From an uncultured Gammaproteobacteria bacterium (GTDB taxonomy: Bacteria; Patescibacteriota; Microgenomatia; CAZETR01; Amesbacteraceae), in assembly GCA_964356225.1 (NCBI GenBank), contig CAYHGA010000002.1, positions 14,894 to 78,893 on the forward strand: a DNA stretch of 64,000 nt. The letters are read 5' to 3'. How positions within the stretch are numbered: position 1 is the stretch's first letter; every line of letters starts with the position of its first letter. The position numbers and the translations under genes were made by a program. Positions 31,985 through 60,224 of this stretch are shown one piece after another. Under the pieces are notes generated by a model. It was not told the origin of the DNA and searched no databases. It was given only the letters and a program-made list of their open reading frames with translations.

Positions 31985-31991
31985 TTCTGAA

Positions 31992-35244: not shown

Positions 35245-35381
35245 ACTCCAATTACAAAAAGGACTATGAATATATAGTTAGCTAGCTGATCAGCTCGGCT
35301 GTAATGGCCGGTTAAAAGCAGCCCCGCTTCGATGAGCATGGCGACCCAAAGTACGATTAATAATGCATTTTTACTTGGCAT
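35226..35381 (-). CDS. Small two-helix membrane ORF (51 aa) coupled to the 844-aa GT-C gene. It is not in the ORF track.
   Basis: Manual translation gives MPSKNALLIVLWVAMLIEAGLLLTGHYSRADQLANYIFIVLFVIGVWRLIR. The start overlaps the stop of the upstream gene, and its TGA overlaps the ATG of the 844-aa gene. It resembles the 44-aa ORF at 46396-46530. Confidence 0.4.
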   Translation of the reverse strand: MPSKNALLIVLWVAMLIEAGLLLTGHYSRADQLANYIFIVLFVIGVWRLIR

Positions 35382-37373: not shown

Positions 37374-37388
37374 CGGGTTGATTCTACC

Positions 37389-38168: not shown

Positions 38169-38169
38169 G

Positions 38170-39114
38170 ATGTCCGTTTGTATTGTTTGTGGAGAAAAAA
38201 GATTTTCCTTCCTTTTTAGGACAAAAGACAGAATGTTTGATATTTCGGGGTCATTTGGTGTCAGAAAATGTCGCCGGTGTGGTCTAGTTTTTTTAGATCC
38301 TCAACCATCACAAAAAATATTAGAAAAACACTATCCTCGTCAACAATATTATTCATACAAAGGAAGTATTAAAGGATTGAGTGGCCTGATAAGACGTTTT
38401 CGTTCATATCTTATTAAAAACTATTACGAACCAACGATTTTAAGTGGCACGTTTTCACTTCTTATTCATGATGTTCCCGGAATACCCAAAAAACCTGATA
38501 AAAAGCCGTGGAAAGTCCTTGATGTGGGTTGCGGATCCGGTGATACATTGATGGCTTTGAAAGAATTAGGATGGGATGTGTACGGACTCGAAATAGACAG
38601 AAATGCAATCAGACTTGCGAAGGAGAGAGGGCTTGTGAATATTAAATTGGGTGGGTATGAAAAAATAGAAAATTTTCCCAATAATTACTTTAACTGCATT
38701 AGGTTATATCATGTGATCGAACATCTACCCAATCCATATCGTTGTCTGCAGCTTATTTACAAAAAACTAAAACCAGGAGGAGAAGTTGTATTAGGAACAC
38801 CAAACGCTGGAAGCATGGTGAGTAAAATCTTTGGCAAATACTGGTATAACCTTGATATACCAAGACATCTTTTTGTTTTTTCTCCTAAAACACTTTCGAG
38901 TCTTATTAAAAAGGCAGGTTTCTCTCAAGTTTCAGCCTCTTTTTGTTCTGGCGACGGTTTAGGTAGAAGTGTTATTTATACAATAAATGAGCTCTTTAAG
39001 AAAAAGATGAATACTAACAAATTTACTTTGCTTTTTTTCATTCTCTATCCAATAGAGTGGATTTTGGATAAATTAAGAGTTGGGGACATTGTGATTCTAC
39101 GGGGAATACGATAA
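38170..39114 (+). CDS. Class I SAM-dependent methyltransferase with an N-terminal Cys4 zinc-ribbon
   Basis: 314 aa. CIVCGEK...CRRCGLVF, then VLDVGCGSGDTLMALKELG (motif I) and KPGGEVVLGTP. Confidence 0.7.
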   Translation: MSVCIVCGEKRFSFLFRTKDRMFDISGSFGVRKCRRCGLVFLDPQPSQKILEKHYPRQQYYSYKGSIKGLSGLIRRFRSYLIKNYYEPTILSGTFSLLIHDVPGIPKKPDKKPWKVLDVGCGSGDTLMALKELGWDVYGLEIDRNAIRLAKERGLVNIKLGGYEKIENFPNNYFNCIRLYHVIEHLPNPYRCLQLIYKKLKPGGEVVLGTPNAGSMVSKIFGKYWYNLDIPRHLFVFSPKTLSSLIKKAGFSQVSASFCSGDGLGRSVIYTINELFKKKMNTNKFTLLFFILYPIEWILDKLRVGDIVILRGIR

Positions 39115-39127
39115 AATAATAGCACAA

Positions 39128-39805
39128 TTGCAAAAAATGAAAAAGTTTTTGAGTGTACTAAAAAAAACTTTTCCGCGTTTTGTCCTAGCCACTTTTGTTG
39201 TGGAGGTTGAAAAACACTTAAAAGGTTGCCAGTCGATCTTGGACGTTGGATGTGGCAATAATTCCCCTATTAGTTTTTTAGAAGAAAAATATACTACTGT
39301 TGGTGTGGATGCATATAAACCTGCAATTGAAGATAGCAAAAAAAGAAAAATACATGATGCTTATATACTTGGAGACATAAAAAAGTTGAACTCATTGGTG
39401 AAAAAAAAATCATTTGATGCCGTGCTAGCACTAGACGTGATAGAACATCTAAAAAAAGATGATGGATATAAACTGCTTGATAGTATGGAGAAAGCCGCAC
39501 GAAAAAAAGTAATTTTGGTCACACCTAATGGTTTTATTCCTCAGTTTGATAAAGACAACAAACTCCAGGCACACCTTTCAGGATGGACTGTTGAAGATTT
39601 TAAAAAAAGAGGATACCATGTAGAGGGTATATATGGCACCAAACTTTGCAATATATTGAGGACTGATGAAGCTGAACTAAGGTGGAAACCTAAATTTTTC
39701 TGGGCATTAGTTTGGGGAGTGTTGGTAGAAATAACTCACCATTTGTATACCAAGAAGAACCCGAAATACTCTATTGGTTTACTTGCAGTTAAAAAAATTA
39801 AGTGA
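39128..39805 (+). CDS. Class I SAM-dependent methyltransferase
   Basis: 225 aa. ILDVGCGNNSPISFL (motif I) ... AVLALDVIEHL (motif II/III). Confidence 0.65.
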   Translation: MQKMKKFLSVLKKTFPRFVLATFVVEVEKHLKGCQSILDVGCGNNSPISFLEEKYTTVGVDAYKPAIEDSKKRKIHDAYILGDIKKLNSLVKKKSFDAVLALDVIEHLKKDDGYKLLDSMEKAARKKVILVTPNGFIPQFDKDNKLQAHLSGWTVEDFKKRGYHVEGIYGTKLCNILRTDEAELRWKPKFFWALVWGVLVEITHHLYTKKNPKYSIGLLAVKKIK

Positions 39806-39807
39806 TC

Positions 39808-40827
39808 TCATTTTTTTAAATTTTCCCTCACTAGTGATAAATGATGTAAATAAAAAGATAAAGGAGGGTTTTTCATTACCCGTTTAAAAATCTCGTTGTC
39901 ATCTAGTTTGCGTCTTTTTTGAATAAAACTTCGTTTTTCTAATGTATCATTTATATTTAATATATTCCACCATATTGCCTTAAGTATCGCTACCGACCCA
40001 TCAGTCTGTCCTGATAAGAAAAAATAAGTTGACAACACTACACAAATTACAATATGAATAGGAAACATCCAAAGCAATGTTGTTAAAGATGTGTTCTTGA
40101 TAATTGTTCTTATTCTGTTTTTAAATGAATGGTAATGGATGAAAGCACTTCTCATGGTTGTGCTTGTTGCTCCCATTTTGTGATATATTATTGATTCAGG
40201 TTCGAAGGCAACGTGATACCCCGTGACCCAAGCACGCCAACACAAATCCGATTCCTCAAAATAACACCAATATTTCTCATCAAAAGCACCTAACTCTAAA
40301 ACCGCTTTCTTAACCATCATACATGCTCCTTTGGCCGCAAATGTTTCTCTAAATTTCTTATATTCAGTTTTATCAGTATCCAAATATCCTATATGAAATA
40401 AGAAACCCATATTCGTCAAATAAGAAACTACATTATCAAGTTGTTCTGGATTGTCCATAATAAATATCTTACTTTGAACTATCCCCAAACTGGGGTCTTT
40501 TTCAAGATCAACTACTAGAGGTTCAATAAAACCAGGAGTTACTAAAGTATCATTGTTCAAAATCAACAAATATTTTCCTTTTGCATGTCTGATCCCAGCA
40601 TTGTTGCCACCAACATAACCAGAATTGTTATTGTTTAAAACTTGTCTGACTTTGGGAAACATCTTTTTAATTACCTCTACGGATTCGTCTTGAGAATTGT
40701 TATCGACAACAATTACCTCATAATTAGGGTAAGTTATTTTCTTCAGCGACTTCAAACAATTTAAAGTAAACTGCTTCTGGTTAAAATTTACAATAATTAT
40801 CGAAACTTTTGGATAAATCATTTCCAA
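39808..40827 (-). CDS. Glycosyltransferase family 2 with C-terminal transmembrane helices
   Basis: 339 aa. VSIIIVNFNQKQFTLNCLKSL...YEVIVVDNNSQDES; hydrophobic C-terminus. Confidence 0.75.
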   Translation of the reverse strand: MEMIYPKVSIIIVNFNQKQFTLNCLKSLKKITYPNYEVIVVDNNSQDESVEVIKKMFPKVRQVLNNNNSGYVGGNNAGIRHAKGKYLLILNNDTLVTPGFIEPLVVDLEKDPSLGIVQSKIFIMDNPEQLDNVVSYLTNMGFLFHIGYLDTDKTEYKKFRETFAAKGACMMVKKAVLELGAFDEKYWCYFEESDLCWRAWVTGYHVAFEPESIIYHKMGATSTTMRSAFIHYHSFKNRIRTIIKNTSLTTLLWMFPIHIVICVVLSTYFFLSGQTDGSVAILKAIWWNILNINDTLEKRSFIQKRRKLDDNEIFKRVMKNPPLSFYLHHLSLVRENLKK

Positions 40828-42554
40828 ATACCGATTTTAATGTCTTCCTTAACAGATAAAAACTTTGTGGAAAACATTCCCGAAAGCCCGGCCAGCGTTT
40901 CCAAAGATTTAACCAAGAAAACACCAATTGTTAAAATAGGGTGAGATAGAAGTTTTCTCCAATTTCTAAAAAATGCAGGTCTAAAAATAATATTTCCGTA
41001 CTTTAATGCGAATGCCGGATTTGCCAACATGAGTATACTTGCTGTTCTTCCGTAAAAAAACTTCTTTTTCATGGAGTTGAATATACTAAAATTTCCTTCA
41101 TTATGATAGATTGGTCCACTTATTCTTCCAATCCTAAAGCCCGACCTCCTTACTCTCAAATCTAAGTCTTTATCTTCAGATAAAACCATTTTTTCGTTAT
41201 GACCCCCGACTAATTTGTAAACGGATGTCTTGAAAAAACGGGCAGATTCTATGGTATCATCTCCAACATACATACTTCTCTCGAATATTTTCACTTTTGC
41301 CCAAAAGCCCCTTCCGTATGAAATTTCAGGAATAACGAGAGCGTCATAATTTTTTATCTTTTTTATGCACTGCTCTAGTACTGAAGAAGCAAGTTTCATG
41401 TCAGCGTCCAAATGCAGTAGATACTCACCCCTGGCTAATTCAGACGCGGATTTTCTTCCTTGGGCCATACTAATATTTTTTTGTAGATGTCTTATCTTAA
41501 TTTTTTTGCTAAATCGTTTTAAAAGATATTTTGTGTCGTCCATTGTTTTTACGTCATCATTAATAATGACTTCAAATTTTTTATTTGTTTGTTTCACAAG
41601 CGAAGGAAGCAAATTTTTCAGATGTTCACCTGCATTTAAAGTGGGGACAATGATCGAGATCAAACCTTCTTCTGTCTTACTTTTTTTCATCGGTTCATAA
41701 TTTTTAAGATTTTCCAGTGTCTTGTCTGTAAATATCACTTGAATTGTATTTATAAAACCCCAAAGAGCGGCAAATGTTTCTAGTGTTTTCATCAAAAACA
41801 TTCCTAGCGATAAAGTAGGGTTTGCCAGTATTTTCTTCCAATGCCTAAAATACGCGGTTCTGAAAATTAAGTTGGCTTGATTGAGAGCCTGTTTGGGGTT
41901 TTCTGCTATATAAACGTGTGCTGTTTTACCGTAGAAAAACTTTTTCTGTAAATTTTTTTTAAGACTCAAATTGCCTTCATTGTGATAAATGGGGGCGTTA
42001 ATTCTTCCTATTTTAAAGCCGGCTTTTCGGATTCTTAAGTCTAAATCTTTATCCTCTGATAACACCATTTTTTCATTATGGCCTCCAATTTTGTTGTAGA
42101 CATCCGTCTTGACAAATCGAGCAGATTCTATAGTTTCGTCACCGATATACATGCTTCTTTCAAACGTTTTTACCTTAGCCCAATATCCTTCCCCATATGA
42201 AATTTCAGGAATAATTAAAGCGTCGTACCCTTTGTTAACCTCTTTGATACATGACTCTAACACCTTTGATGATAAAGACATGTCTGCGTCAAGATGTAAA
42301 AGATATTCTCCCGAAGCTTGCTTAGCTCCTCTTTTCCTCCCTTGAGCCATACTAATGTTCTCCCGTAAATATTTTACTTTAAGCTTTTTGCTAAATTTCC
42401 TTAGCACCACTTTTGTATTATCCGTGGTCATTTTGTCATCATTAATAATCACTTCAAAATTTTTGTACGTTTGATTAACTAGAGATGGCAAAAGATCGTT
42501 TAAATAGCCCGCGGCATTTTTTGTAGGAATTATAATTGAGATTAATTTATTCAT
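40818..42554 (-). CDS. Tandem-duplicated two-domain GT2 glycosyltransferase
   Basis: 578 aa. Residues 1-290 and 291-578 are collinear paralogous GT2 modules about 70% identical, for example ISIIIPTKNAAGYLNDLLPSLVNQT versus ISIIVPTLNAGEHLKNLLPSLVKQT. Each half ends in a hydrophobic segment. Confidence 0.75.
   Translation of the reverse strand: MNKLISIIIPTKNAAGYLNDLLPSLVNQTYKNFEVIINDDKMTTDNTKVVLRKFSKKLKVKYLRENISMAQGRKRGAKQASGEYLLHLDADMSLSSKVLESCIKEVNKGYDALIIPEISYGEGYWAKVKTFERSMYIGDETIESARFVKTDVYNKIGGHNEKMVLSEDKDLDLRIRKAGFKIGRINAPIYHNEGNLSLKKNLQKKFFYGKTAHVYIAENPKQALNQANLIFRTAYFRHWKKILANPTLSLGMFLMKTLETFAALWGFINTIQVIFTDKTLENLKNYEPMKKSKTEEGLISIIVPTLNAGEHLKNLLPSLVKQTNKKFEVIINDDVKTMDDTKYLLKRFSKKIKIRHLQKNISMAQGRKSASELARGEYLLHLDADMKLASSVLEQCIKKIKNYDALVIPEISYGRGFWAKVKIFERSMYVGDDTIESARFFKTSVYKLVGGHNEKMVLSEDKDLDLRVRRSGFRIGRISGPIYHNEGNFSIFNSMKKKFFYGRTASILMLANPAFALKYGNIIFRPAFFRNWRKLLSHPILTIGVFLVKSLETLAGLSGMFSTKFLSVKEDIKIGIWK
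40818..42554. repeat. Intragenic tandem direct repeat, two units of about 870 bp each (about 75-80% nucleotide identity)
   Basis: The duplication is seen both in the protein and in DNA. Compare 41170-41350 with 42040-42220. Confidence 0.7.
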
Positions 42555-42870
42555 TTGGGGGTTTAGTCGCTACTTTTAACAGTCTTAAAAAAGAATAAAA
42601 GACAAATGTGTAAATCATGAATCCGGTTTGTATTCCAAACAGGCTTAGTGGCAGAAGAAATAGAATGCTAAAAATGACTAAAGTTTCCGGGACTTTATAC
42701 ATCGTTACTATTGCCAATGAAAATAAGAGCAACTTAAGCTCCAGGCTTTGTTCTAAAATATAAACTTCGGCTCCGGTCTTTATAAGCTCAGAAAAAATAA
42801 TATAGAAAATCAAAAGTAACATAATTTTTGGCTTTTCCAGATGTATATGCGTAATTATATTAATTTTCAT
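42547..42870 (-). CDS. Small polytopic membrane protein, possible GtrA-like lipid-linked sugar translocase
   Basis: 107 aa with 3-4 predicted transmembrane helices. It lies between a GT2 and a giant GT-C gene with 4-8 nt overlaps. Assignment rests on size, topology and context only. Confidence 0.35.
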   Translation of the reverse strand: MKINIITHIHLEKPKIMLLLIFYIIFSELIKTGAEVYILEQSLELKLLLFSLAIVTMYKVPETLVIFSILFLLPLSLFGIQTGFMIYTFVFYSFLRLLKVATKPPNE

Positions 42871-45800
42871 TTTTTTGAATAAAATAATACTAAATATATT
42901 AACCCCAAACTAAACAACGATATTATACTAACTAAAGAAGTTTTATAGAGAATATTTTGGGGCCGATACTCGATAAGAAATGCCAATTCCTTTTCACTAC
43001 CACTGTCTATTAACCAACCGTTGCCATAAGCATTTAACTTAATATCCGGACTTTTAGCCCCCTCTCCCTTAAACACCAAATCTGATAATAAATGCCTGTC
43101 CTGTCTTTCATATTCGACCACTTTTCCGCCCAAGTATTTTTTCTCTCTGCCTTTAAAATAGGAGTTGGCAAGACTTGTTTCTACTTCCCGCACACTCCAC
43201 TGTTGATCAAACCTAGAATTAAAACCTAAAATAAACGAGTCGCTGATACCGGACACTTTGACAAGATAAGCGGTCTGATTAAGCGCTACAAATTGTAAGT
43301 TGTAGTTTTCTGGCGGAATTAATGGATTTTCTTTTGTTACAAAAGCCAAATAATCGGAATAATTTTCAGTGACTTTTATACCTTTTAATTCAAAGGCAGC
43401 AGGAAAGTCATAAGTACCCTCTACACATATTCTTAAGAGGGCCGTTTCTGCATAAATACTTGGTTTATATTTAATATTTAACCTATAGGAAAATGGGGCA
43501 GAAGAATTTTTATCCGTCTGGGGATAAATAGTTTTTTTATTGCCTTTGGGAAATTGTTGATTTGTCTCCAGAAGTTCAATATCCACTAATCTATCGGAAA
43601 GTGTCAAATATTCCAAGTTGAGATTATAGTCTATTTCAGGATCTACCTCACCAAGATTTATTGATTTGCATTCAGAAGATCTAGCGGTTGCGTTGATTTT
43701 GAAACCGGGATAGGATTTCTCTTTGCGAATTAATTCTGGCAAAACTATTGATTGTCCGCCCTGGTCAAGTCTAATTGATTCTCCAAAATACCATTTATTA
43801 CTTGAGGACGACTTTGCAAGGATGTGAGGGGTATTGTTTACGAATCCAGAAAGAGCTTGTCTATCATTGGGCTTGTAATTATAAACAGCCAGTTTGTAGT
43901 TGCCTGCGTATGGTACGTTTATAGTATATTGTTTTGTGCGTACATCGTAATTAGAAATAGGAACCTCGGGAGAAATGTCCAATTCCTGAACGCTCATGGT
44001 TAACATGTCCTCAAATTTGCCTAGTTGTGCCCGAGTTGATTCTGTAAGTCCAGTCTCCCTCCACTTTTGGATACTGACCAAAAAATTCCAGTAGTAAAAA
44101 TATATTCTGCGAGCGTATTCGTCTTTTTGACTTTGTTGGTCAATATCCTTGAAGAACTGATCAACTAGATAGATATTGTTACTCCACTTTCGAAAAAGAT
44201 ACGAAATCGTATTACTATTTTTGGGATTTATTATTATTCTGTCCATGGCTGATATCTCCTTACTCATTGTTCCCATAGTAAAGTCTATTTTTTCTGTTGG
44301 CAGTTCATACTTTTCACTTTTTTGTTGGTCTATAAATTCAATAAGAAAATAAAATGGATTGCTTGGAAAGATCGGAGGAGGGTTTGATCTCACGACGTCT
44401 ATGTATTTTTTTTCTTGACAATTTAAACACTGTGCTTGAATTGTAATGTTTTGAATATCCTTCTGGTATATGATAGGGTCTATATTGCTTCCCTCGCTAA
44501 TGTGCTTGAATATAAACGCGTCTGCCAAAGAAGGCATCCCTGGCGTTTGACTGATTCGAGAAAGTTGTGAAGTTTCTGCCAAAATATATGAAAAATTTTG
44601 TGGGATATAAATGAGAGGTTTTGTCTCGGGGTCGTTAATAGTAAAAAACTTCCACTTACCAACTTCTTTATATAAAGATGAATTAGGCGCGCGGTAGAGT
44701 GCCTTTTTGATTGAACCCGTAAGATAGTCCATGTCCTCGTCAACTTTAAAATCTTCTTGCACGATAGCTCTATCTACTCCCACGTATTTCAGAAGCGATG
44801 ACTGAGAAGATTTTTCAAGTTGTTGATAAATTGCATTAACTAACCCGGGCTCGTCCCCACTCAAGACGGCGTCATTAAGTAGAACCGGTTTTCTGCTCAA
44901 TATGCTGGGTATACTCGATAGGCTGAAGTATTTCCAATCATAAGCAATATATTTATTGCCGTCGTGAAGTTGGGGTAGCATGAGTGTTCTGGCGGAAAAA
45001 CTATTACTATCAAGCTCCTTCTTTGCCTCTAGGATATAGTCTGGAACTTTAACTCTGGTGGAGTATTTATTAGACCAATTGAAAAACACTCCTGTAAAAA
45101 CCGGGTAGTTATATATGCCCAATAAGACGACAAAGGCAGTGAGGCTAAAAAAAGGCGCTCTCTTTACGGTCAGCTGTTTTAAACCGACCGCTACTAGATA
45201 AGAATAAGCAAACCAAAGGGCCATACCAAATTTATAAAAGGGGGTTCGGAAAATCGGAAAACCGGGGATATATTTTAAGGCCAGGTCATATAAGACACCT
45301 GTTGGAGGGTGGGAACCTGCCGTAAAAGGTATTGCTACCAGCAAAATCGCCAGAAATACGACTTTGTAAACTATGTCAGAGTTGGCTTGACCCTTTTTGT
45401 TAAGCAAGCTGAAAAAGGCTATGGCAGGAAAAACGCTGGCAAGCAGTAAAAAGAAATAATTTGTTAGAAGTGTATTGGCATACGGATGGTTGGGATTATC
45501 ATACCAATCGGGTATGCCTTGGAGTTTAATAAGGTTGGTGAAACTGGCATTTTTACTTATCTCGCGACTCCAGGCGATTGCTCCTTCGCTACCACCTGCG
45601 GCACCGATTCTATGTGTATAGTTATATTGATATGAAGCTATGTAGGGATATATCCAGTAGAAGTTGAGTAGGAGGACAAAAATTAAAGATAAAAGAGAGA
45701 AACTTAAAGTTCTTTTGAATTTATCTACAAATGGTTGTGAAGAAATTAGAAAAGTTATTATCGTTGTAGTTAGAGCAACAATGAATAACCCTCCCCATAA

Positions 45801-46391
45801 CGGAATCCCGGCTCCACCGTTTAGGAAAAAAAGTGTTACTCCTACCAGGATGGCATTTTTAAAAACTGACCCTTCTCTTAAATTAACATTGATTATTGCG
45901 AGAGTTATCAAAGGAAGCGCTGAGACAATAGAAAACTTGGACATCTCGGCAATAATCCAGGCCTGGAGAAGATAATGGTTCAGCATGTAAAACAAAGATC
46001 CGGAAATTCTTAAGACGGAATTTTCTTTTTCTGGGTGAAGCGATTTTAAAAGAACGTACATAGTTATCCCGGGAAGGGTAAACCAGAAAATGAAGTCAAA
46101 CTTTTGAGCAAGCTGTAATGAGCCTGTTAGCGCGTAAAAAAACGCCTGTAGGCCGTGTATAAAAATACCGGGGATGGCATCGGTTTGATTAGAACCAAAA
46201 CTGCCAACTCTATCAGTCCAAACAAATAACCTGTCTAACCAAAAGTCTATTGGGGCTAAAGGATAACTCATATCGTGGCCAGCGGCTAAATAACCACCCT
46301 TAAACCACAAAAGCGGTACTAACCCTACTAGGAGAAGGAATATTATTTCCAACCAATACCGATTAAATTTAGGTAGTTTCAACGGTCCCAT
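42867..46391 (-). CDS. Giant polytopic membrane protein, putative GT-C glycosyltransferase (AftD/YfhO-like)
   Basis: 1174 aa. About 13 N-terminal transmembrane helices, first loop GHDMSYPLAP...WTDRVGSFGSNQ, a soluble domain of about 650 aa, and one C-terminal helix. It is a paralog of the 1031-aa neighbour. Confidence 0.5.
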   Translation of the reverse strand: MGPLKLPKFNRYWLEIIFLLLVGLVPLLWFKGGYLAAGHDMSYPLAPIDFWLDRLFVWTDRVGSFGSNQTDAIPGIFIHGLQAFFYALTGSLQLAQKFDFIFWFTLPGITMYVLLKSLHPEKENSVLRISGSLFYMLNHYLLQAWIIAEMSKFSIVSALPLITLAIINVNLREGSVFKNAILVGVTLFFLNGGAGIPLWGGLFIVALTTTIITFLISSQPFVDKFKRTLSFSLLSLIFVLLLNFYWIYPYIASYQYNYTHRIGAAGGSEGAIAWSREISKNASFTNLIKLQGIPDWYDNPNHPYANTLLTNYFFLLLASVFPAIAFFSLLNKKGQANSDIVYKVVFLAILLVAIPFTAGSHPPTGVLYDLALKYIPGFPIFRTPFYKFGMALWFAYSYLVAVGLKQLTVKRAPFFSLTAFVVLLGIYNYPVFTGVFFNWSNKYSTRVKVPDYILEAKKELDSNSFSARTLMLPQLHDGNKYIAYDWKYFSLSSIPSILSRKPVLLNDAVLSGDEPGLVNAIYQQLEKSSQSSLLKYVGVDRAIVQEDFKVDEDMDYLTGSIKKALYRAPNSSLYKEVGKWKFFTINDPETKPLIYIPQNFSYILAETSQLSRISQTPGMPSLADAFIFKHISEGSNIDPIIYQKDIQNITIQAQCLNCQEKKYIDVVRSNPPPIFPSNPFYFLIEFIDQQKSEKYELPTEKIDFTMGTMSKEISAMDRIIINPKNSNTISYLFRKWSNNIYLVDQFFKDIDQQSQKDEYARRIYFYYWNFLVSIQKWRETGLTESTRAQLGKFEDMLTMSVQELDISPEVPISNYDVRTKQYTINVPYAGNYKLAVYNYKPNDRQALSGFVNNTPHILAKSSSSNKWYFGESIRLDQGGQSIVLPELIRKEKSYPGFKINATARSSECKSINLGEVDPEIDYNLNLEYLTLSDRLVDIELLETNQQFPKGNKKTIYPQTDKNSSAPFSYRLNIKYKPSIYAETALLRICVEGTYDFPAAFELKGIKVTENYSDYLAFVTKENPLIPPENYNLQFVALNQTAYLVKVSGISDSFILGFNSRFDQQWSVREVETSLANSYFKGREKKYLGGKVVEYERQDRHLLSDLVFKGEGAKSPDIKLNAYGNGWLIDSGSEKELAFLIEYRPQNILYKTSLVSIISLFSLGLIYLVLFYSKK

Positions 46392-46395
46392 TTTA

Positions 46396-46530
46396 TCATC
46401 TACTTCTTTCTTTTAGTGAGCTGATTAATATGAGGAATAGAAAACTGTAAACTAAAACCCCAGTTATTTCCCCCAGTTTGTCAAAAAGCAGGAGTAAAAT
46501 AGATGTAAGGATTAAAAATTTACTTGCCAT
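46396..46530 (-). CDS. Small two-helix membrane ORF (44 aa) coupled to the 1174-aa gene. It is not in the ORF track.
   Basis: Manual translation gives MASKFLILTSILLLLFDKLGEITGVLVYSFLFLILISSLKERSR. It starts 2 nt after the stop of the 1031-aa gene and ends 5 nt before the ATG of the 1174-aa gene. It has the same M-x-S-K N-terminus and two-helix layout as the ORF at 35226-35381. Confidence 0.4.
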   Translation of the reverse strand: MASKFLILTSILLLLFDKLGEITGVLVYSFLFLILISSLKERSR

Positions 46531-46532
46531 AT

Positions 46533-49500
46533 CTATAAAAGTAAAAAAAATAAAATAATCAATAAAGAGGCTGTACTTACTCCTACTGCTTTGTAAAAAT
46601 CGTTTTGGTTATTATATTCCAAAAGATAAACATGTTCATTATCCTGGTTACTTTTTTCGGAATTTAAAATCCACCCGGGAGAGAAACCATTTAGTTCAAG
46701 AGTCGGATAAAGTTTTTTGCCGTTGTTTGGGAAAACGATGTCTGATAGCACGTGGGTATCTTGTCTTTCGTACTCAACCACTTTGCCGTTTTGAAAACTT
46801 CTCTTGTCTCCTCTAAAGTATTTGTTTACATCTTGCTCTATTTCTCTTAAACTCCAATTCGGATCAAAACGCGAGTTAAAGCCTAGCAAGAAGCGTTCGC
46901 TGCCTTTAGCTTTGAGTAAATATTTGGTTTGATTTAGGGCTACAAATTCAATATTTGGTGAAACAAACTCGGGAGCATTTTTCATCAATTCTGCAAAAAT
47001 TTTAGGTCTTGTTTCTGAATTTTTCGGTTTTTGTAACTCTAATAAAATCCGTACGTTTTCAAGCGGCACATTGGTAATTTGGTACCAATTTGTGCCGATT
47101 CTTTGAGCGCTAAACGTGCGATTGTTAACCGTCAATTGTATTTGATCACTTAATGTTGACTTATTGTAAAGATAAAGATTATAGCTTCCTGTTTCCGGAA
47201 CTTCGAGGCCGTATTTATATAATTTGTCGTCTACCTTCACCACAGGCTGTCCAAACTGTTCATCAATTTCTGTAATAGCTTTTCTTAATTCAATTTCAAG
47301 ATTAATCAGGTCTGATTTTATCGGGCCTAGTTGAGCAGAAGTTGCCCACTGAGATTCATAAGAAATGAAAAATGACAAGTAAAAACGAAGTTTTCTAAGG
47401 ATTTCTTGTTTTATTTTTGAATCCGAAATTTGATCCAGGTTAAGTTTCATTTCTTTCAAGTTTTTGATTAAATCCATTACTGCTACCCCGATCCCCTTTT
47501 CATCTTTCTTGGCTTGAAGCAAACCCAGGTCTGAAATTAAAGTTGTAGAAGCCGATAAATTGATTTCAATTCTCGCGTTTGGACTACCGGAAAAGTATTT
47601 TCTCGCGTCAGTTATAAACTTACCCAGCTTATAAAACGCTGTTCCGGGTATTAACGCCTTTGATGTGGAGAAATATATTTGATAGTTATCGGCTGAAGGA
47701 CAATCAGTACAATTAGCCTGGATAATAAGTTTAGAAAAAATGTCTACTTTTTTGTTATCTTCTGGAAAATCAGACCACAAAAACGCAGCGCTATCTAAGG
47801 CCCCTGGCAGATTTGCGACTATATCTAAATCTTTTTGATCAGATGAAATGAATGTAACTGCCGGTGGAGAGTAAATTCGAGGAAGGATTTCCCCATTATA
47901 ACCGTAGAAATCCCATCTTCCTATACTTTTCTTAAAAGTAAAATCTTTAGATTTTTTAAATGACTCTTTTATCCCACTTAAGACGTTGCCTTCATAATCT
48001 GGCGAAATAAAGTCATTTTGCACTACGGCTCTGTCAGCCCCTGTAAATTTAACCAAATTAGAATTTCCAAATTTAATATACTCTGATAAAGTGCTGATTA
48101 TCAAATTTGTCTCATTGGGCCTTGCTAACACTCCGTTTACTGTTAAGGATTTTCTTCCCATCATATGTGACAAATCATTTAAGCTAAAATAACCCCAATC
48201 GTAATCAATATACTCAGTTCTTATATCAGCGTTGGGTAAAGATAAAGTTCTGGTAGAGAATTTACTACTATCAAGTTCCTTCTTTGCTTCAAAGATATAA
48301 TCAGGCACTTTTACCATCGTGGATTTCCCTTTAGAATAGTTAAAAAAACTTCCTGTTAAAAATGGATAATTGTATATAAAGAGCGAAACTATAAATGCGC
48401 CAAGTAAAACCTTTGGTTTAATTTTTAACCAGTCTATTACATCTTTGACTCCCACTGCGATTAAATAGGCATAAGCAAACCAAATAATCATCCCAAATTT
48501 AAAAAACCCGGAACGAAACATGCCAAAACCGGGGGCGTTAACCAACAAGTAATCGTAAAATATTCCCAAAGGAGAATGGCTTCCTGCAGAGAGCGGAACT
48601 GCAATAAGTAATAAACTTAAGAAGTAAATTCTCGTTTTAAATAATAAGCCCGATAGTTTTTTAAGATTTAAAAGACCAAACAGAGCTAAAGTCGGAAAAA
48701 GAAGGTTTAGAAATAATAATATGGGATTTTTAAAAAATTCATTTGCAAAAGGATGATTTGGGCTGGCATACCAATCAGGTATTCCCCTAAGTTTAAACAG
48801 GTTTATCCAACTGGTATTTACGCTTATCCCCTGGCTCCAGGAAAGAGTCCCCGCTATTCCCCACGCTTGTTCGAATCTTTGCCCAAAGGTTTGGTTATAA
48901 GACTTAAAATAAGGGTAAAACCAATAACTACTAAGCAGTGTCCAGAATAAAGCAGATAAAAAAGAAAAGATGAGTAATCTTTTTATCTTAGGCCAAAAAC
49001 TTTCGTTTGACAAAAAGAAGAATATTATTGCTGTCGATGCAACTACTACAAACAAGCTAATCAAAAGTGGAATACCCTCTCCACCATTTAAGAAAAATAA
49101 GGTCAGGGCAAAGAGTAGAGAATTTTTTACGGGAGATTCTTTTTTATGTAATGTCTTAATTATTAAAAGTACAACTATAGGTAGAGCTGCGACGATTGAA
49201 AACTTAGTTCTTTCCGCGATAGTCCAGGCCTGAAGAAGATAGTGGTTCATCATGTAAAATAGGCTTCCGAAAATTCTAACCGGATAATCATTTTTCTTAG
49301 GATGTAGATAACAAAGAAGTGCGTACATCATAATTCCCGGAAGAACAAACCAAAAAATGTAAGTTATCTTTTGAACTGCGGATAGCGAGAACCCTATGAA
49401 GGACAGCAAAGCTTCAAGTCCATGTATAAACACGCCCGGCAGAACTTGAACTGAATTAGAGCCAAATGGGCCCAGTCTGTCGGTCCATGTATATAGTCTA

Positions 49501-49628
49501 TCTAAAAAATGAGCTACTGGGGCCAGGGAGAAACCCATATCGTGACCCAATCCTATGTATCCAGGCTTATACCAAAGAAGTGGTGCTAAACCAACGATTA
49601 ACAATAAAAGGATCTCAATTTTTTTCAT
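46533..49628 (-). CDS. Giant polytopic membrane protein, putative GT-C glycosyltransferase (paralog of 42867-46391)
   Basis: 1031 aa. N-terminus LIVGLAPLLWYKPGYIGLGHDMGFSLAPVAHFLDRLYTWTDRLGPFGSNS aligns with the 1174-aa protein. Same topology, ending in a C-terminal helix. Confidence 0.5.
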   Translation of the reverse strand: MKKIEILLLLIVGLAPLLWYKPGYIGLGHDMGFSLAPVAHFLDRLYTWTDRLGPFGSNSVQVLPGVFIHGLEALLSFIGFSLSAVQKITYIFWFVLPGIMMYALLCYLHPKKNDYPVRIFGSLFYMMNHYLLQAWTIAERTKFSIVAALPIVVLLIIKTLHKKESPVKNSLLFALTLFFLNGGEGIPLLISLFVVVASTAIIFFFLSNESFWPKIKRLLIFSFLSALFWTLLSSYWFYPYFKSYNQTFGQRFEQAWGIAGTLSWSQGISVNTSWINLFKLRGIPDWYASPNHPFANEFFKNPILLFLNLLFPTLALFGLLNLKKLSGLLFKTRIYFLSLLLIAVPLSAGSHSPLGIFYDYLLVNAPGFGMFRSGFFKFGMIIWFAYAYLIAVGVKDVIDWLKIKPKVLLGAFIVSLFIYNYPFLTGSFFNYSKGKSTMVKVPDYIFEAKKELDSSKFSTRTLSLPNADIRTEYIDYDWGYFSLNDLSHMMGRKSLTVNGVLARPNETNLIISTLSEYIKFGNSNLVKFTGADRAVVQNDFISPDYEGNVLSGIKESFKKSKDFTFKKSIGRWDFYGYNGEILPRIYSPPAVTFISSDQKDLDIVANLPGALDSAAFLWSDFPEDNKKVDIFSKLIIQANCTDCPSADNYQIYFSTSKALIPGTAFYKLGKFITDARKYFSGSPNARIEINLSASTTLISDLGLLQAKKDEKGIGVAVMDLIKNLKEMKLNLDQISDSKIKQEILRKLRFYLSFFISYESQWATSAQLGPIKSDLINLEIELRKAITEIDEQFGQPVVKVDDKLYKYGLEVPETGSYNLYLYNKSTLSDQIQLTVNNRTFSAQRIGTNWYQITNVPLENVRILLELQKPKNSETRPKIFAELMKNAPEFVSPNIEFVALNQTKYLLKAKGSERFLLGFNSRFDPNWSLREIEQDVNKYFRGDKRSFQNGKVVEYERQDTHVLSDIVFPNNGKKLYPTLELNGFSPGWILNSEKSNQDNEHVYLLEYNNQNDFYKAVGVSTASLLIILFFLLL

Positions 49629-51246
49629 TTGTGATATCCTTTTTTAATTTCTCTCTTATGTTTCCAGAAACGTTTTTAACAGAGTGTTTTTGATAGTCCC
49701 AATAATACGCATGCACATTGTCAGAAGATACGTCTGGATTCTCTTTGAGCGCACTTAATAGTTTGCTATAAGTCATGAAATATCCGTATTTGCCAGTTTT
49801 ATATTGTTTAAGCCCTTCATGGGAGAGGTCCCAAAAATCTGGATCGGTTAAAGCTTCATTTGGAACCTTGCCGGTGTTGTATAACCAAACAGCTAATGTT
49901 TGTCCAAATCCTGACTGAAATTCCCAAAACCCATTATTGTCCGTAAAAAAATAAAAGACATTGTTTCTTTCCAAGTTTGGTTTAATTTGTGATACAGTCT
50001 CAAGCATGGCTTTGCGGTATGCTCCTGTTTTGATATCTAATGCCAAGTCTCGTTTGATATTTGTTACATAATAACCCAAGAGGGGTAACAATATTATTAT
50101 GGATAATGGCAGTTTAATTTTAGGCAAAATTGACATATAAGTGTCGACTGTGAGAGCCAAAATCAGCCCTGCCCAAAGAGCGGGAAAAATATAAAAGCGG
50201 TGCTCTAATGTTGCCGGTTGGTTGGGGAACAAGACAAAAGGCGCACAGGAAAAACCAAAAGTTACTAGCGAGAACAATATTGTTTTTTTTGACCTTTTGG
50301 CTAAAGCTACGGCCCCAAGTACTATTGATAAGACTGTAATTGAACCAATTACTGAAACGGCGTCTCCAATAATGCTTTCTATTACATAACCGTTAGTCAA
50401 ATCTCCATAATGGATCTTGTTAGCTTTGTAAAATAAACTATAAAGTTGTTTTTGGGGGATGAAGACTTGGAAAAGGGTACGGGAAGGAATTAAAAGTGTG
50501 TTGTAGACAATATTTCCGCTCTGGGTAATTTTAGCCGCTTCAGGAACACTAGATGAAACCTCAATATTTTTGAAAAGTAGTTTTGGAAGTGCAATTGTTA
50601 AAAGAATTGGAATTATTAATATACTCCAACTCCATCTAATGCCTTTGGAAAAGACTAGTAATGGAAAAGTAAGTATGTAATATATTCCAGATTCTTTAAA
50701 AAGCAGTGAGATCAACATAAAGAGTGAGCAAAGTAATAAATTTTTTATCCTGCGATTTTTTCGGAAGGTTAATAGATTCCAAAAAGACATCATGAAGAAT
50801 GTAAACGAAAACTGAGACGGCACAATCGAGCTAATCCACGTGATGGCTTGTTGTGAGTATCCGTTTGTTAACCAAAATAGCGTAGTTACGATGGAAATTA
50901 CCCTGGATTCAGTAAGCTTCTCGATGCAAAAGTAAATTAGCAGAGAATTGGCCACTGCCATAAAAAATGCCAAATAACCGTACCATGAAAAATTTAGGCC
51001 GAAGGTGTTGAAAACCACATAATTGGCCAAAGATGTAAGGGGAAGGAATCTGAACAAGCCTCCGGCTGGATGAAATATGTCTATAACGGCTCGGGTTATG
51101 CCACCATTATCCCTTCTACTCATGGCCCCACCCAATCCCAACCACTCATCCTGCTGAAAAAAGATGTTATTTATTCCCCAAAAGGCTAGTAGAGCAACTA
51201 AAATAATTATTGACAAACTAAGAATGTGGGGCCGTATCTTACGCAT
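49615..51246 (-). CDS. Polytopic membrane protein, putative GT-C glycosyltransferase
   Basis: 543 aa, about 13 transmembrane helices. First loop FFQQDEWLGLGGAMS has a D-E motif. A soluble C-terminal domain of about 130 aa follows. Confidence 0.45.
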   Translation of the reverse strand: MRKIRPHILSLSIIILVALLAFWGINNIFFQQDEWLGLGGAMSRRDNGGITRAVIDIFHPAGGLFRFLPLTSLANYVVFNTFGLNFSWYGYLAFFMAVANSLLIYFCIEKLTESRVISIVTTLFWLTNGYSQQAITWISSIVPSQFSFTFFMMSFWNLLTFRKNRRIKNLLLCSLFMLISLLFKESGIYYILTFPLLVFSKGIRWSWSILIIPILLTIALPKLLFKNIEVSSSVPEAAKITQSGNIVYNTLLIPSRTLFQVFIPQKQLYSLFYKANKIHYGDLTNGYVIESIIGDAVSVIGSITVLSIVLGAVALAKRSKKTILFSLVTFGFSCAPFVLFPNQPATLEHRFYIFPALWAGLILALTVDTYMSILPKIKLPLSIIILLPLLGYYVTNIKRDLALDIKTGAYRKAMLETVSQIKPNLERNNVFYFFTDNNGFWEFQSGFGQTLAVWLYNTGKVPNEALTDPDFWDLSHEGLKQYKTGKYGYFMTYSKLLSALKENPDVSSDNVHAYYWDYQKHSVKNVSGNIREKLKKDITNEKN

Positions 51247-51266
51247 GCAGGTTTGATTTTAACTCT

Positions 51267-51959
51267 TTATCTGGTTTTTGAACACTTTAAAAAAGCCGTT
51301 GATAGTCCGGGGGACTGATATTCTATGTCTAGCTGGTGGTTAAAAAAATTCTGAAATAGCGGGCGGCGGCGAAGTACCCATTTGGAAAGATACATGTTCA
51401 AAGCGTATAGAACCTCCCACAACTTTCCCTTAATAAAAAGCTTGTTGACAGTTAGACCTGCCTGTTGGCTAAACTGCCTTAATTTTTCTAATGAGTAATG
51501 TCTGTGTTTAATTAACCACCAGGCGGGATCGAATAACTTTGACGGCCAAGAGGCAAAAGGTGTAGACAAGTAAAAATGGCCACCAGGTTTCAGAACACGG
51601 TAAACTTCACGAAACATTCTTTTTTCAGTCCGGGGCGGGATATGCTCTAAAACCTCCCAACAAACGACTGTGTTAAAACTATTGTTGGCAAACGGCAGTT
51701 TAGTGGCGTCAGCTACCCGAAATTTTACCCGTGAGTTTTTAATGTTAGATTTAATGGTTTCTAGGTCACCTTCGGTAACCTCACTAGCAACAATCGACCC
51801 CGCTCCCCTAGTTAGAAAATTTAATTCGCACCACCCGTAACCGCTGCCAATATCAAGAATAGTTTTATTTTTTACGTCAGAATTGTCGACAAAATCCATG
51901 CTAAACTTAAGCCGGCCATGGATATCGGTTGAGGGCCTTTCTGAAAGAATATTTTTCAT
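51267..51959 (-). CDS. Class I SAM-dependent methyltransferase
   Basis: 230 aa. ILDIGSGYGWCELNFL (motif I) ... VVCWEVLEHI ... KPGGHFYLSTP. Confidence 0.7.
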   Translation of the reverse strand: MKNILSERPSTDIHGRLKFSMDFVDNSDVKNKTILDIGSGYGWCELNFLTRGAGSIVASEVTEGDLETIKSNIKNSRVKFRVADATKLPFANNSFNTVVCWEVLEHIPPRTEKRMFREVYRVLKPGGHFYLSTPFASWPSKLFDPAWWLIKHRHYSLEKLRQFSQQAGLTVNKLFIKGKLWEVLYALNMYLSKWVLRRRPLFQNFFNHQLDIEYQSPGLSTAFLKCSKTR

Positions 51960-53501
51960 TTAAATTTTACGGGCATATATTTCAAGAGAATCAAAAAAAT
52001 TTATGGTTAAAAACGGTTTTCCCTTAAGCGCGGATAACAATTTATATATTGGTGGAAATATATTTTTTAGACGGGTTATCCAGTAATTTAAGCTAAAAGT
52101 CCAACTGTATTTCCCGAGCTTTTCAATTTTATACCCTAAAGACAAAAGAAGTAAAGATAATGTTTCTTCTGTAAAATAATAAATATGATCTGGACGAATG
52201 TGCCACCAATTTTCACCCAATAATTTTGAAATTAGGCTCCCTATATCGGGCGTCACTAGACATAACACCCCGTCTTTATTCAGAATTTTGTGAATGTCTG
52301 CTAAAAGTTTTCTGGGGGAAGATACGTGTTCAATCACGTCCAGGCAAGTTACGGCATCAAATGGCTTCCCCTTGAGCTTAACAGTTTCAAGTGTACCTTG
52401 AATAATATTTAGTCCGAATTTTTCCCTCCCAATTCTAGAAGCCCATTTTGATGGCTCAATTCCGATTGACTCCCACTTATGTCTGTGCGCAATTTCTAAA
52501 AGTGTTCCTGTAGCGCATCCAATATCCAAAAGCTTTCCAGAAAATTTATGTAGATTTTCTATCTTCTTAAATATTCTTTCATGCGTCATTAACCTTGCCG
52601 TTCTTTCATTTTCATAATCAGGGTCTACAAAGCCTGAATATCTTTCTACTAGTTTTTTATCTTTCTCTCTGGGAGAACAGTAAAGTAAATTACAATCCAA
52701 GCATTTAACTATTTGAGAATGGTCACCATATGAATTGTCGGTTATGTAGTACTTATCTTTGGCAATTCCCCTTTTTTGGTAAACAACTCTTGCTTTATCG
52801 TTACTACAAATATCGCAAATATGATTTGATAAACTGTTTATTTGAAATGTTTTTTTCATGAATCTATGATATTTTGTTAAAAGAAAAACCCAGGGAATTA
52901 CCAATGATTTTTTGAATTGTGCTTGAGAAAGATTTTCTAAAAACTCACTTCGACTCGAAAAATTATCCATGCAGATGTAATTTCTACCAAGCTCGTATTT
53001 AGTGTGAGCGTCACTGCCGATACACACAATTTTCCCTATTTTCTTTGCAAACTTTTCTGCTTTTAAATTGTCCCATGGCTTAATTGTTCTACCATTAAAG
53101 ACTTCAATTATGTCTATGTCATCAATATTCAAGGTTAAAGAATTTTCGTTAATGGCGGTTTTCCTTGTGGTGGTGTCAAACGGATGCGGTAAATACACAA
53201 GCCCTCCTTGGTGTTTAATTTCTTTAATTGTTTGCCTCATTGAAAGACCTGAAGGAATGAATTTTTTTAAAAATAAGCCTATTATCTCTCCTTCTTTACT
53301 CAAGATCTCCTCACCCACAATTACTTTAAATGGGGCAATTCTTTGAAGCCGTAGGGCGCCTTCAATTTGATTGTGGTCGGTAACAGCTAAAACATCAATC
53401 TTTTTCTGGATGCATTTATCTATTAAATCTTTGTAAGAGATCGAACAGTCGTACGAATACTTTGTATGAACATGTAATTCAACTTTAATTTTGGCAGACA
53501 T
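51960..53501 (-). CDS. Fusion protein: N-terminal PHP-family phosphoesterase, Cys4 zinc-ribbon, C-terminal class I SAM methyltransferase
   Basis: 513 aa. ELHVHTKYSYDCS...AVTDHN...GSDAHT are the His/Asp metal motifs of a PHP domain. The middle has CDICSND...CLDCNLLYC. The C-terminus has LLDIGCATGTLLEIA...AVTCLDVIEHV...KDGVLCLVTP. Confidence 0.65.
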   Translation of the reverse strand: MSAKIKVELHVHTKYSYDCSISYKDLIDKCIQKKIDVLAVTDHNQIEGALRLQRIAPFKVIVGEEILSKEGEIIGLFLKKFIPSGLSMRQTIKEIKHQGGLVYLPHPFDTTTRKTAINENSLTLNIDDIDIIEVFNGRTIKPWDNLKAEKFAKKIGKIVCIGSDAHTKYELGRNYICMDNFSSRSEFLENLSQAQFKKSLVIPWVFLLTKYHRFMKKTFQINSLSNHICDICSNDKARVVYQKRGIAKDKYYITDNSYGDHSQIVKCLDCNLLYCSPREKDKKLVERYSGFVDPDYENERTARLMTHERIFKKIENLHKFSGKLLDIGCATGTLLEIAHRHKWESIGIEPSKWASRIGREKFGLNIIQGTLETVKLKGKPFDAVTCLDVIEHVSSPRKLLADIHKILNKDGVLCLVTPDIGSLISKLLGENWWHIRPDHIYYFTEETLSLLLLSLGYKIEKLGKYSWTFSLNYWITRLKNIFPPIYKLLSALKGKPFLTINFFDSLEIYARKI

Positions 53502-53504
53502 TGA

Positions 53505-54383
53505 CTATAAGTAGAAAAGTATAAATAAAAGAATAATGACGATGGTATTTAAGATAAACTTATAACTAAAAACGAATGATTCAATATTTCTTGATTTGGC
53601 TTCACCGGATTTTACTTTTTTTACTATCCAAAGAAAATATAACACTATAAACGGAATTCCCATTAAAAATGACCGCTGATATTTATAAATTTCTCTAGCA
53701 ATAAAAATTGTTGATAGAGCTATATAAAAATACATCATGATCAACAGGCTTTTCAGAGAATAGGTATCAAATGTGTTTCTGTATGGAACTAGTTTTTTAC
53801 CATAAAACTTGAGCTCACCGTATCTTTTTGCGGTCATTAAAACTGCTCCTATAGACCAGGTTGATAATAAAATTAAAAGAGGGGGGAATTCTGATTTAAC
53901 TATCACAAACCAACCCAGGAGAAATCTGATAGGATTATTTAATGATTCTGAAATTACGTCTAAATAAGGTATATTTTTTAGTCTTATAGGTCTAATGTTA
54001 TACAAAATTCCGGCGATCCAGAGGGATCCAAGGACGTAAAGGAAATTGACATTATAAAAAATGTTAGCTACGAGCAAACTTCCAAATAATAGAATAAAGG
54101 CTAGTATTTCTGCTCTAAAAATTGTTATTTTGCCTGAAGGAATTGGTCTTGTTTTTTTGTCCGGGTGTCTTTTATCGAATTCTACATCTGCGATCTGGTT
54201 GACAATGTAATTAACCGAAGAAATTAGAGACGCCAGGATAAAAGCTCCAACTGCTTGTATCACAACTTGCGATCCAATGGATTTGCTTTGACTAAGAAAA
54301 ATTGCCGATATTATTCCAGCGATAATAAACAAGTTTTTGAACCAGTGATCAACCCGCATCAGCCTGATGTAACTATAGAACAT
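53505..54383 (-). CDS. UbiA-family polyprenyl-phosphate prenyl/phosphoribosyl-transferase (resembles decaprenyl-phosphate 5-phosphoribosyltransferase)
   Basis: 292 aa, 8-9 transmembrane helices. NQIADVEFDKRHPDKKTRPIPSGKI matches the N-x-x-x-D-x-x-x-D ... R-P-[IL]-[PA]-S-G UbiA active-site motif. N-terminal RVDHWFKNLFIIAG resembles the RPxQWxKN start of DPPR synthases. Confidence 0.7.
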   Translation of the reverse strand: MFYSYIRLMRVDHWFKNLFIIAGIISAIFLSQSKSIGSQVVIQAVGAFILASLISSVNYIVNQIADVEFDKRHPDKKTRPIPSGKITIFRAEILAFILLFGSLLVANIFYNVNFLYVLGSLWIAGILYNIRPIRLKNIPYLDVISESLNNPIRFLLGWFVIVKSEFPPLLILLSTWSIGAVLMTAKRYGELKFYGKKLVPYRNTFDTYSLKSLLIMMYFYIALSTIFIAREIYKYQRSFLMGIPFIVLYFLWIVKKVKSGEAKSRNIESFVFSYKFILNTIVIILLFILFYL

Positions 54384-60220: not shown

Positions 60221-60224
60221 GAAG

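Follow-up and report, generated by a model that had tools for sequence, protein, structure and literature searches.

Two genes for giant membrane glycosyltransferases lie head to tail with a reading frame of only 44 codons between them: is this small frame a gene at all, where did it come from, and what might its product do beside such large enzymes? The question is raised by a 64,000-nucleotide stretch of contig CAYHGA010000002.1 (positions 14,894 to 78,893), hereafter the window. Its minus strand carries an open reading frame (ORF) of 44 amino acids (aa) in the gap between genes of 1031 and 1174 aa, whose products resemble mycobacterial AftD, a glycosyltransferase of type C (GT-C). Comparison with related loci indicates that this mini-ORF is a genuine gene, derived by truncation from a family of small membrane proteins with four predicted transmembrane (TM) helices. 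Its product may be an accessory subunit of the neighbouring enzymes. The features concerned first are the following.

46396..46530, minus strand: the 44-aa mini-ORF, a predicted two-helix hairpin, truncated (TM3-TM4) member of a small-protein family
46533..49628, minus strand: AftD-like GT-C paralog 1, 1031 aa, with conserved synteny in relatives
42867..46391, minus strand: AftD-like GT-C paralog 2, 1174 aa, assigned from an AlphaFold2 model, a fold search and the PF11847 matches of relatives

The translation of the mini-ORF is MASKFLILTSILLLLFDKLGEITGVLVYSFLFLILISSLKERSR, with two hydrophobic segments. A previous reading of this DNA from its letters alone (the sequence-only reading) had placed a small minus-strand ORF in the gap between the 1031-aa and 1174-aa genes, and both its position and its length of 44 aa were verified. 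The flanking genes are giant paralogs, as had been claimed, with 41% identity over ~830 residues. The spacing had been given as 2 nucleotides (nt) on the upstream side and 5 nt on the downstream side. The ATG of the mini-ORF indeed lies 2 nt past the TAG of the 1031-aa gene, whereas 4 nt separate its TGA from the ATG of the 1174-aa gene. The ORF had also been described as unannotated, which is wrong for this genome: exact-sequence look-ups showed that both small ORFs of the window (the second is considered below) are gene-called, nameless, in its NCBI and ENA assemblies, which represent a Patescibacteria metagenome-assembled genome from Hainich groundwater. The description fits the relatives only. 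No Rfam family, tRNA or terminator was detected in or near the gap. A promoter-like site (TGAACA-16 nt-TATAAT, 10/12, a consensus match only) is present on the minus strand at 46638..46611, where it falls within the last part of the 1031-aa coding sequence, ~80 nt ahead of the mini-ORF ATG.

A single open frame of 44 codons has a chance of ~3% in shuffled sequence of the window's AT-rich DNA, so that the comparison with relatives decides whether the frame is meaningful. Loci encoding relatives of the 1174-aa protein were fetched and are designated by L-numbers. Eight distinct junctions between a 1031-type and a 1174-type gene (those of the window, L012, L013, L014/L133, L015, L017, L076/L132 and L086) all contain an ORF that begins with ATG, spans 43-57 codons and keeps the same relative frame, and the 1174-type orthologs, compared in six of the eight loci, range from 83% down to 50% identity with the window protein. 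Over the eight loci the frame of the ORF contains 0 stops, compared with 53, 25, 53, 7 and 35 in the other five frames, and mononucleotide shuffling gives P = 0.006-0.04 per locus for the open frame. Pairwise differences, summed over 39 ungapped codons, amount to 534, 298 and 645 at codon positions 1, 2 and 3. Synonymous divergence estimated by the Nei-Gojobori method (dS) is saturated (>1 or undefined) in nearly all pairs compared, with nonsynonymous divergence (dN) of 0.28-0.86 for the mini-ORF, 0.13-0.48 for the giants and 0.24-0.50 for a 543-aa neighbour. The first six orthologs aligned all share residues M1, E21, G24, Y28, L31 and L35. Judged from these comparisons, purifying selection maintains the 44-codon ORF as a real protein-coding gene, with a roughly twofold more relaxed constraint than on its neighbours. 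The sequence-only reading had named a non-conserved frame in orthologous loci as the result that would tell against a real small-protein gene; with the frame open in 8/8 loci, its proposal stands. The antisense frame -2 was considered as a second candidate gene and rejected, being open in just 4/8 loci and the usual mirror of NTN codons.

Gene callers mostly pass over this ORF. The orthologs are called in 1/8 loci, and no gene is called in the gap in the other 7/8, because the ORF overlaps both neighbours: in relatives, up to 20 nt are shared with the end of the upstream gene and up to 8 nt with the beginning of the downstream one. As a consequence, protein databases hold the window's copy alone. 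The 44-aa peptide retrieved nothing but itself, whether searched by word index against 5.8e9 proteins or exhaustively with phmmer against 1.8e9 representatives. In L016/L020/L078, L077, L018/L081 and L022/L079 the giant genes directly adjoin or overlap each other, and the corresponding junction has no mini-ORF; losses are counted in at least two lineages. In a neighbour-joining tree of the 1174-type proteins, L016 and L077 are nested within the mini-bearing group, which implies secondary loss, and L018 and L022 branch below it.

The origin of the mini-ORF could be traced by profile comparison. A hidden Markov model (HMM) of the mini-ORFs gave weak matches to the C-terminal part of ORFs of ~107-130 aa located directly after AftD-like genes, and an iterative search over the fetched loci revealed a family of small proteins in most of them. 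Members are ~105-135 aa long, with four helices predicted from a low-confidence model, and are recognized by two motifs, PY[LVI]N between TM1 and TM2 and [G/A/S]-E-x-x-G-x-x-x-[Y/F] at the start of TM4. The window itself contains a full-length member.

42547..42870, minus strand: full-length family member, 107 aa, four predicted TM helices, identified by family search and model

It and the 1174-aa gene share 4 nt, at the stop of the latter. Searches of Pfam and NCBIfam with the 44-, 51- and 107-aa proteins of the window yielded nothing meaningful, and no model of either collection matches members of the four-helix family. The 107-aa protein has 12 close homologs, all unnamed, and no fold in the PDB matches its model.

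Three alignments were used for profile comparison: A2, of the mini-ORFs; A3, of 30 full-length members; and A4, a set of three sequences for the 51-aa ORF. In hhalign, A2 aligns to TM3-TM4 of A3 with a probability of 76.6% and an E-value of 2e-5. Against the observed score of 28.5, 100 column shuffles gave 9.1 +/- 1.9 (maximum 14.4) and the alignment in reverse gave 12.5. An HMM built from A3 only, without any mini sequence, was run against 36,015 six-frame fragments from 134 sources, including hundreds of multi-pass membrane ORFs. Most mini-ORFs (13.9-21.1 bits) ranked straight after the full-length members, and the window ORF scored 19.4 bits as a stop-to-stop fragment and 23.6 bits as the ORF alone. 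Noise sets in at ~12 bits, one false positive from the reverse strand reaches 14.2, and two mini copies fall within the noise (L012, 10.8 bits; L014, 9.5 bits). The 44-aa ORF covers TM3-TM4 only; the full four-helix architecture and the PY[LVI]N motif are missing from it, and the window's 107-aa copy is also without PYxN.

In the L119 locus, the 1031-type/1174-type junction is occupied by a full-length member of 106 aa, the C-terminus of which, LMFYQLGEISGVFIFISLL, resembles the window peptide LLFDKLGEITGVLVYSFLF (BLASTP E 2e-4). Taken with the mini-bearing and the empty junctions, L119 completes a series that leads from full-length to hairpin-only to lost. On the strength of the profile and junction comparisons, the 44-aa ORF is a truncated derivative of the four-helix family, corresponding to its C-terminal hairpin (TM3-TM4). 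Two further observations concern the full-length genes. In L018 (7323..7826, plus strand), the stop-to-stop frame of a 104-aa member reaches back into the end of the preceding giant gene, and this upstream part contains a second match to family HMM positions 44-93, which could be a remnant or an internal repeat. We also considered that the glutamate of the mini-ORF might compensate for the loss of this residue in the 107-aa copies of the clade; this idea was abandoned, as mini-less lineages lack that glutamate too.

Members of the family are found one by one beside AftD-like genes. The sequence-only reading had taken a position upstream of a GT-C gene as defining for the small ORFs. Instead, an AftD-like gene comes directly before the family member in 75 of 77 distinct full-length cases, and the mini-ORF is placed likewise, with its tight junction of 2 nt. 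Conversely, 99 distinct AftD-like ORFs are followed by a full-length member in 78 cases, by a mini-ORF in 8 (with 2 more that are low-scoring) and by neither in ~11. The loci were collected with AftD-like queries, and the counts therefore speak for AftD-containing loci, not for the family elsewhere. Genomes with several AftD-like genes carry one family copy per gene.

The window contains a second candidate for a hairpin-only protein, located upstream of a third large gene.

35226..35381, minus strand: second mini-ORF, 51 aa, ATGA-coupled to the 839/844-aa gene (HMM 14.0 bits, hhalign 23.1)
32710..35229, minus strand: distant AftD-like/GT-C-like membrane protein, 839 aa (844 from TTG), downstream of the 51-aa ORF

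The 839-aa protein shows local similarity to the 1174-aa protein (E 3e-8). The 51-aa peptide is encoded where the sequence-only reading had placed it, and its ORF and the 844/839-aa gene (first ATG at 35229) do overlap by ATGA. A Shine-Dalgarno-like sequence, GGAGTAGAGGTG, precedes this ORF (35382..35400, minus strand). L132 has a 46-aa ortholog at the same position, 78% identical. The M-x-S-K start that had been put forward as a family feature did not hold, since it is not kept in the orthologs of either ORF and the L132 ortholog is without it. The proposed homology of the two small ORFs survives in part. No relationship is seen when the 44-aa and 51-aa peptides are compared directly (BLASTP E 1.1; profile-profile probability of A4 against A2, 1%), whereas both connect to the four-helix family with scores above their nulls. 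For A4 against A3, hhalign aligned the same C-terminal hairpin with a score of 23.1 (null 9.8 +/- 1.9, maximum 17.5), next to the 28.5 obtained for A2. The A3 HMM gave the 51-aa ORF just 14.0 bits, at the edge of noise. The two ORFs are probably separate truncated members, distant paralogs through one family, the link being weaker for the 51-aa ORF.

Counterparts of the 51-aa ORF vary between loci. In L022, a more distant relative, none was found, and the gap of ~200 nt contains no comparable ORF. Another 25 loci have a full-length member between the AftD-like gene and the 844-like gene, so that the 839-aa homologs come after a small-family gene there. In the distant relative L062, this slot of the full-length small gene is occupied by a 54-aa ORF (6188..6352, plus strand) with the motif SASELLGIITF, starting 4 nt after the AftD-like stop and ATGA-coupled to the 844-like GT-C. 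From these alignments and gene orders, the C-terminal hairpin appears to have been kept alone three times, in the 44-aa ORF, the 51-aa ORF and the 54-aa ORF of L062. A different arrangement occurs in L133 (17596..20324, plus strand), in which the sequence syntenic with the 51-aa ORF continues in frame, with no stop, into the 844-like GT-C. The whole is called as a 1002-aa product, and enzyme homology starts at residue 81 of the continuous ORF. Small protein and enzyme may be naturally fused here, or the continuity may stem from an assembly error.

The nature of the giant enzymes bears on any role of the small protein. At E <= 0.01 the two giants of the window have no Pfam match, PF11847 (GT-C_AftD) included, and a PDB search with their sequence profile returned nothing. 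PF11847 is matched by 8/14 aligned relatives (best E 7.4e-9). The link to AftD itself came by fold search alone. An AlphaFold2 model of the 1174-aa protein (predicted local distance difference test, pLDDT, 75.5) has mycobacterial AftD structures (6WBY, 6WBX, 6W98) as its top Foldseek matches, with E-values of 3e-12 to 8e-12, followed by STT3 (including complexes 8AGC and 8PN9), PglB, DPY19, ArnT and AftA. As modelled, the giants have the AftD fold, in which a multi-pass GT-C domain is joined by large beta-rich soluble domains, and their earlier designation as AftD-type GT-C enzymes is supported both by this match and by the relatives' PF11847 hits.

Several other genes of the window belong to the same glycan cluster.

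49615..51246, minus strand: conserved membrane protein, 543 aa, syntenic upstream neighbour of the 1031-aa gene
35371..36696, minus strand: multi-pass membrane protein, 441 aa, directly upstream of the 51-aa ORF, with orthologs in L022, L025 and L132
36657..37373, minus strand: glycosyltransferase of family 2 (GT2), 238 aa, nearest to ArnC, PgfS and Dol-P-hexose transferase, all below curated cut-offs
53505..54383, minus strand: UbiA-family protein, nearest to decaprenyl-phosphate phosphoribosyltransferase (E 8.4e-28, whole length, below the curated cut-off)
51960..53501, minus strand: fused PHP-phosphatase/methyltransferase, after the UbiA gene and upstream of the AftD-like genes
30716..31984: MOP-family flippase gene

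The 441-aa and 543-aa multi-pass proteins have no Pfam, NCBIfam or PDB sequence match. The former is a syntenic partner of the 51-aa and 844-aa genes and the latter of the 1031-aa gene. We take decaprenyl-phosphate phosphoribosyltransferase to be the synthase of a lipid-linked pentofuranose donor. The similarities of the UbiA-family protein and the PHP-phosphatase/methyltransferase suggest a donor pathway of this type, like the mycobacterial decaprenylphosphoryl arabinose (DPA) route. A Wzy_C and a PMT_2 protein are further products of the cluster, and by analogy the locus resembles multi-component extracytoplasmic glycosylation systems (PMC8035078, PMC11127046). G+C content changes from ~0.44-0.49 (positions 1..30000 of the window) to ~0.33-0.41 (~30000..64000) in the glycan-cluster part with the GT-C genes. 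Many GTDB records of such Microgenomates-type loci (L020, L022, L025, L028 and others), which are third-party annotation (TPA) assemblies, are titled 'uncultured Gammaproteobacteria bacterium', a label that looks wrong from gene content and closest relatives.

What could such a protein do? We propose that the mini-ORF is a conserved truncated gene for an accessory subunit of the GT-C enzymes, an explanation that, taken as a whole, we hold tentatively and place a little short of an even chance. A two-gene unit, consisting of an AftD-like GT-C and a four-helix membrane protein of ~110 aa, would have undergone tandem duplication. This would have left one small-protein copy between the enzyme paralogs, and in this clade the copy would then have been cut down to its C-terminal hairpin (TM3-TM4). 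The hairpin retains [G/A/S]-E-x-x-G-x-x-x-Y at the start of the last helix, that is, a putative small-xxx-small packing motif together with the conserved glutamate. K4 at one end and K40, R42 and R44 at the other suggest an N-in/C-in topology, which would bring the acidic loop and the motif to the outer face or leaflet of the membrane. The outer face is where GT-C enzymes use polyprenyl-phosphate sugars. If translated, the peptide would be co-produced with both enzymes and could dock helix to helix on the GT-C transmembrane domain, or on the full-length 107-aa paralog bound there. Its effect on the enzymes would be that of a small accessory or stabilising subunit within an extracytoplasmic glycan-building machine.

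A bolder form of this proposal is that the AftD-type GT-Cs of Microgenomates are obligate two-part machines with a dedicated subunit, unrelated to GtrA and SMR proteins, whose core, a two-helix hairpin with the glutamate and small-xxx-small motif in the outer leaflet, handles or presents the polyprenyl-phosphate pentofuranose donor and is sufficient alone. We regard it as doubtful. If it were true, the sufficiency of the hairpin, in proteins of 44-57 aa that are mostly uncalled, would explain both the three lone retentions and the one in-frame run into the enzyme.

Several observations weigh against a functional subunit derived from the four-helix family. Homology of the mini-ORF to the family rests on ~30 aligned membrane-helix columns, and the AlphaFold2 model of the 107-aa protein is of low confidence (pLDDT 61). 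The first hydrophobic segment of the 44-aa peptide is ~13 residues long. No Shine-Dalgarno-like sequence was found before the 44-aa ORF or its orthologs, and the mini-ORF evolves ~2x faster than the neighbour genes. It is also dispensable, being absent from the same junction in L016/L077 and in L018/L022. The extension of the enzyme in L133 shows only a weak resemblance to the 51-aa peptide (BLASTP E 0.053).

Some of these points lead to the alternative that the mini-ORF is a decaying relic, a functionless leftover of the duplicated small-protein gene that is heading for deletion. The passage from full-length (L119) to truncated to absent at one and the same junction, at least one secondary loss within the mini-bearing clade, the faster evolution and the missing Shine-Dalgarno-like sequence would all be expected of it. 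Nevertheless, the ATG, the open frame, the hydrophobic second-codon positions and the family motif have been kept in 8/8 loci despite synonymous saturation. With a chance of an open frame of 0.006-0.04 at each locus, and with the same half of the protein apparently kept in three separate cases, we consider decay rather unlikely.

A second alternative assigns a transport function to the family. The four-helix proteins would transport the polyprenyl-phosphate sugar donor, as functional analogues of GtrA, GtcA or Rv3789, and the half-size paralog with two TM helices would join the 107-aa protein in a hetero-oligomeric translocase. The locus does contain other parts of such a system, namely the UbiA-family protein similar to decaprenylphosphoryl-phosphoribose (DPPR) synthases, the GT2 similar to ArnC and Dol-P-hexose transferase, and the AftD-fold GT-Cs. 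The third part of known systems is often a small protein of 3-4 TM helices, thought to be dimeric (PMC8035078, PMC11127046), and four TM helices are predicted for the 107-aa protein. However, the 30 full-length members have no GtrA or SMR Pfam match at E <= 1, a fragment of two TM helices is unprecedented as a transporter part, the cluster has a separate MOP-family flippase gene (30716..31984), and flippase activity is unproven even for GtrA-type proteins (PMC11127046). A subunit is further favoured over a flippase because each GT-C gene has its own copy, in contrast to GtrA-type proteins, which several GT-Cs typically have in common (PMC8035078), and because the tight or overlapping junctions suggest stoichiometric co-production. 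The same two-helix half apparently kept alone in three cases, and the copy that is maybe fused in frame to a GT-C in L133, point in the same direction. A flippase component is, in our judgement, unlikely.

The mini-ORF could also be a coupling ORF, a translated spacer that hands ribosomes from the 1031-aa to the 1174-aa gene and whose peptide is irrelevant. The genes are indeed closely packed, with gaps of 2 nt and 4 nt in the window and overlaps of 8-20 nt in relatives, but E21, G24 and Y28 are conserved and coincide with the motif of the full-length family, and lineages without the ORF couple both genes directly, so that a spacer is unnecessary; we find this explanation very improbable. That the frame is a chance ORF of AT-rich intergenic DNA, or marks a non-coding RNA or regulatory element, would agree with the ~3% expectation for one open frame and with the promoter-like site just upstream (46638..46611), but the frame is kept in 8 diverged loci and neither an Rfam match nor a terminator was found, so that this idea is scarcely credible and the chance-ORF reading is already refuted as far as comparative data allow.

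Preference therefore goes to a conserved truncated gene for a small GT-C partner, and three aspects give the case an interest beyond this locus. The four-helix proteins constitute a new small-protein family, without a Pfam or NCBIfam model, that stands one-to-one with AftD-like enzymes in the fetched Patescibacteria loci. Small membrane proteins encoded next to GT-Cs, even GtrA, GtcA and Rv3789, have proposed roles only, as does the route by which lipid-linked sugars reach these enzymes; the natural minimal versions described here point to the C-terminal hairpin as a candidate working module. Lastly, the mini-ORF is a concrete case of conserved mini-proteins skipped by gene callers (1/8 called), and it contributes to what little is known of how Patescibacteria assemble cell-envelope glycans, with a practical significance that is moderate, as these organisms are uncultured.

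The GtrA/GtcA family (PF04138), which we take to include M. tuberculosis Rv3789, provides the first comparison. GtrA-type proteins are small, with 3-4 TM helices, and are encoded beside a polyprenyl-phosphate sugar synthase and a GT-C; they are the proposed, unproven flippases of multi-component extracytoplasmic glycosylation systems (PMC8035078, PMC11127046). The parent family of the 107-aa protein is alike in size, predicted helix number and genomic company, a synthase and GT-Cs being nearby in the window (the synthase assignments are below curated cut-offs). It differs in having one copy after each GT-C, not one common copy, and in its motifs, PY[LVI]N and [GAS]-E-x-x-G-x-x-x-[YF]. PF04138 gave no match with the 44- and 51-aa peptides at E <= 10 or with the 30 full-length members at E <= 1. 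The 44-aa protein corresponds to only half of such a protein and has fewer than 3-4 TM helices.

The second comparison is with ArnE and ArnF, an SMR-like heterodimer formed by a paralogous pair of small proteins with 4 TM helices, the genes of which lie directly downstream of that of the GT-C ArnT. ArnT uses a polyprenyl-phosphate donor of the pentose type. The likeness consists in small proteins with four TM helices encoded directly after a GT-C gene. The four-helix family has no SMR or EamA Pfam match, and its conserved glutamate is at the start of the last helix, not in TM1 as in SMR proteins. We know of no form of the ArnE/ArnF family with two TM helices.

The mode of action proposed for the 44-aa peptide is, by analogy, closer to that of Ost4 and Ost5 (TMEM258), mini-subunits of oligosaccharyltransferase (OST) with 1-2 helices and 36-80 aa that pack on the GT-C catalytic subunit and stabilise the complex. 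These subunits are eukaryotic, unrelated in sequence and not truncations of a larger partner. Their binding is demonstrated, whereas that of the 44-aa peptide would be a prediction, hinted at by genomic coupling and by the continuity seen in L133. A bacterial counterpart by description is GacJ of Streptococcus pyogenes, a small activator with 3 TM helices of the GT-A enzyme GacI (PMC8035078). GacJ is likewise a small membrane accessory of a glycosyltransferase in a multi-component glycosylation system, but it partners a cytoplasmic GT-A and not a GT-C. Set beside these systems, the mini-ORF would represent a truncated variant of a known theme, the small membrane partner of a GT-C glycosyltransferase.

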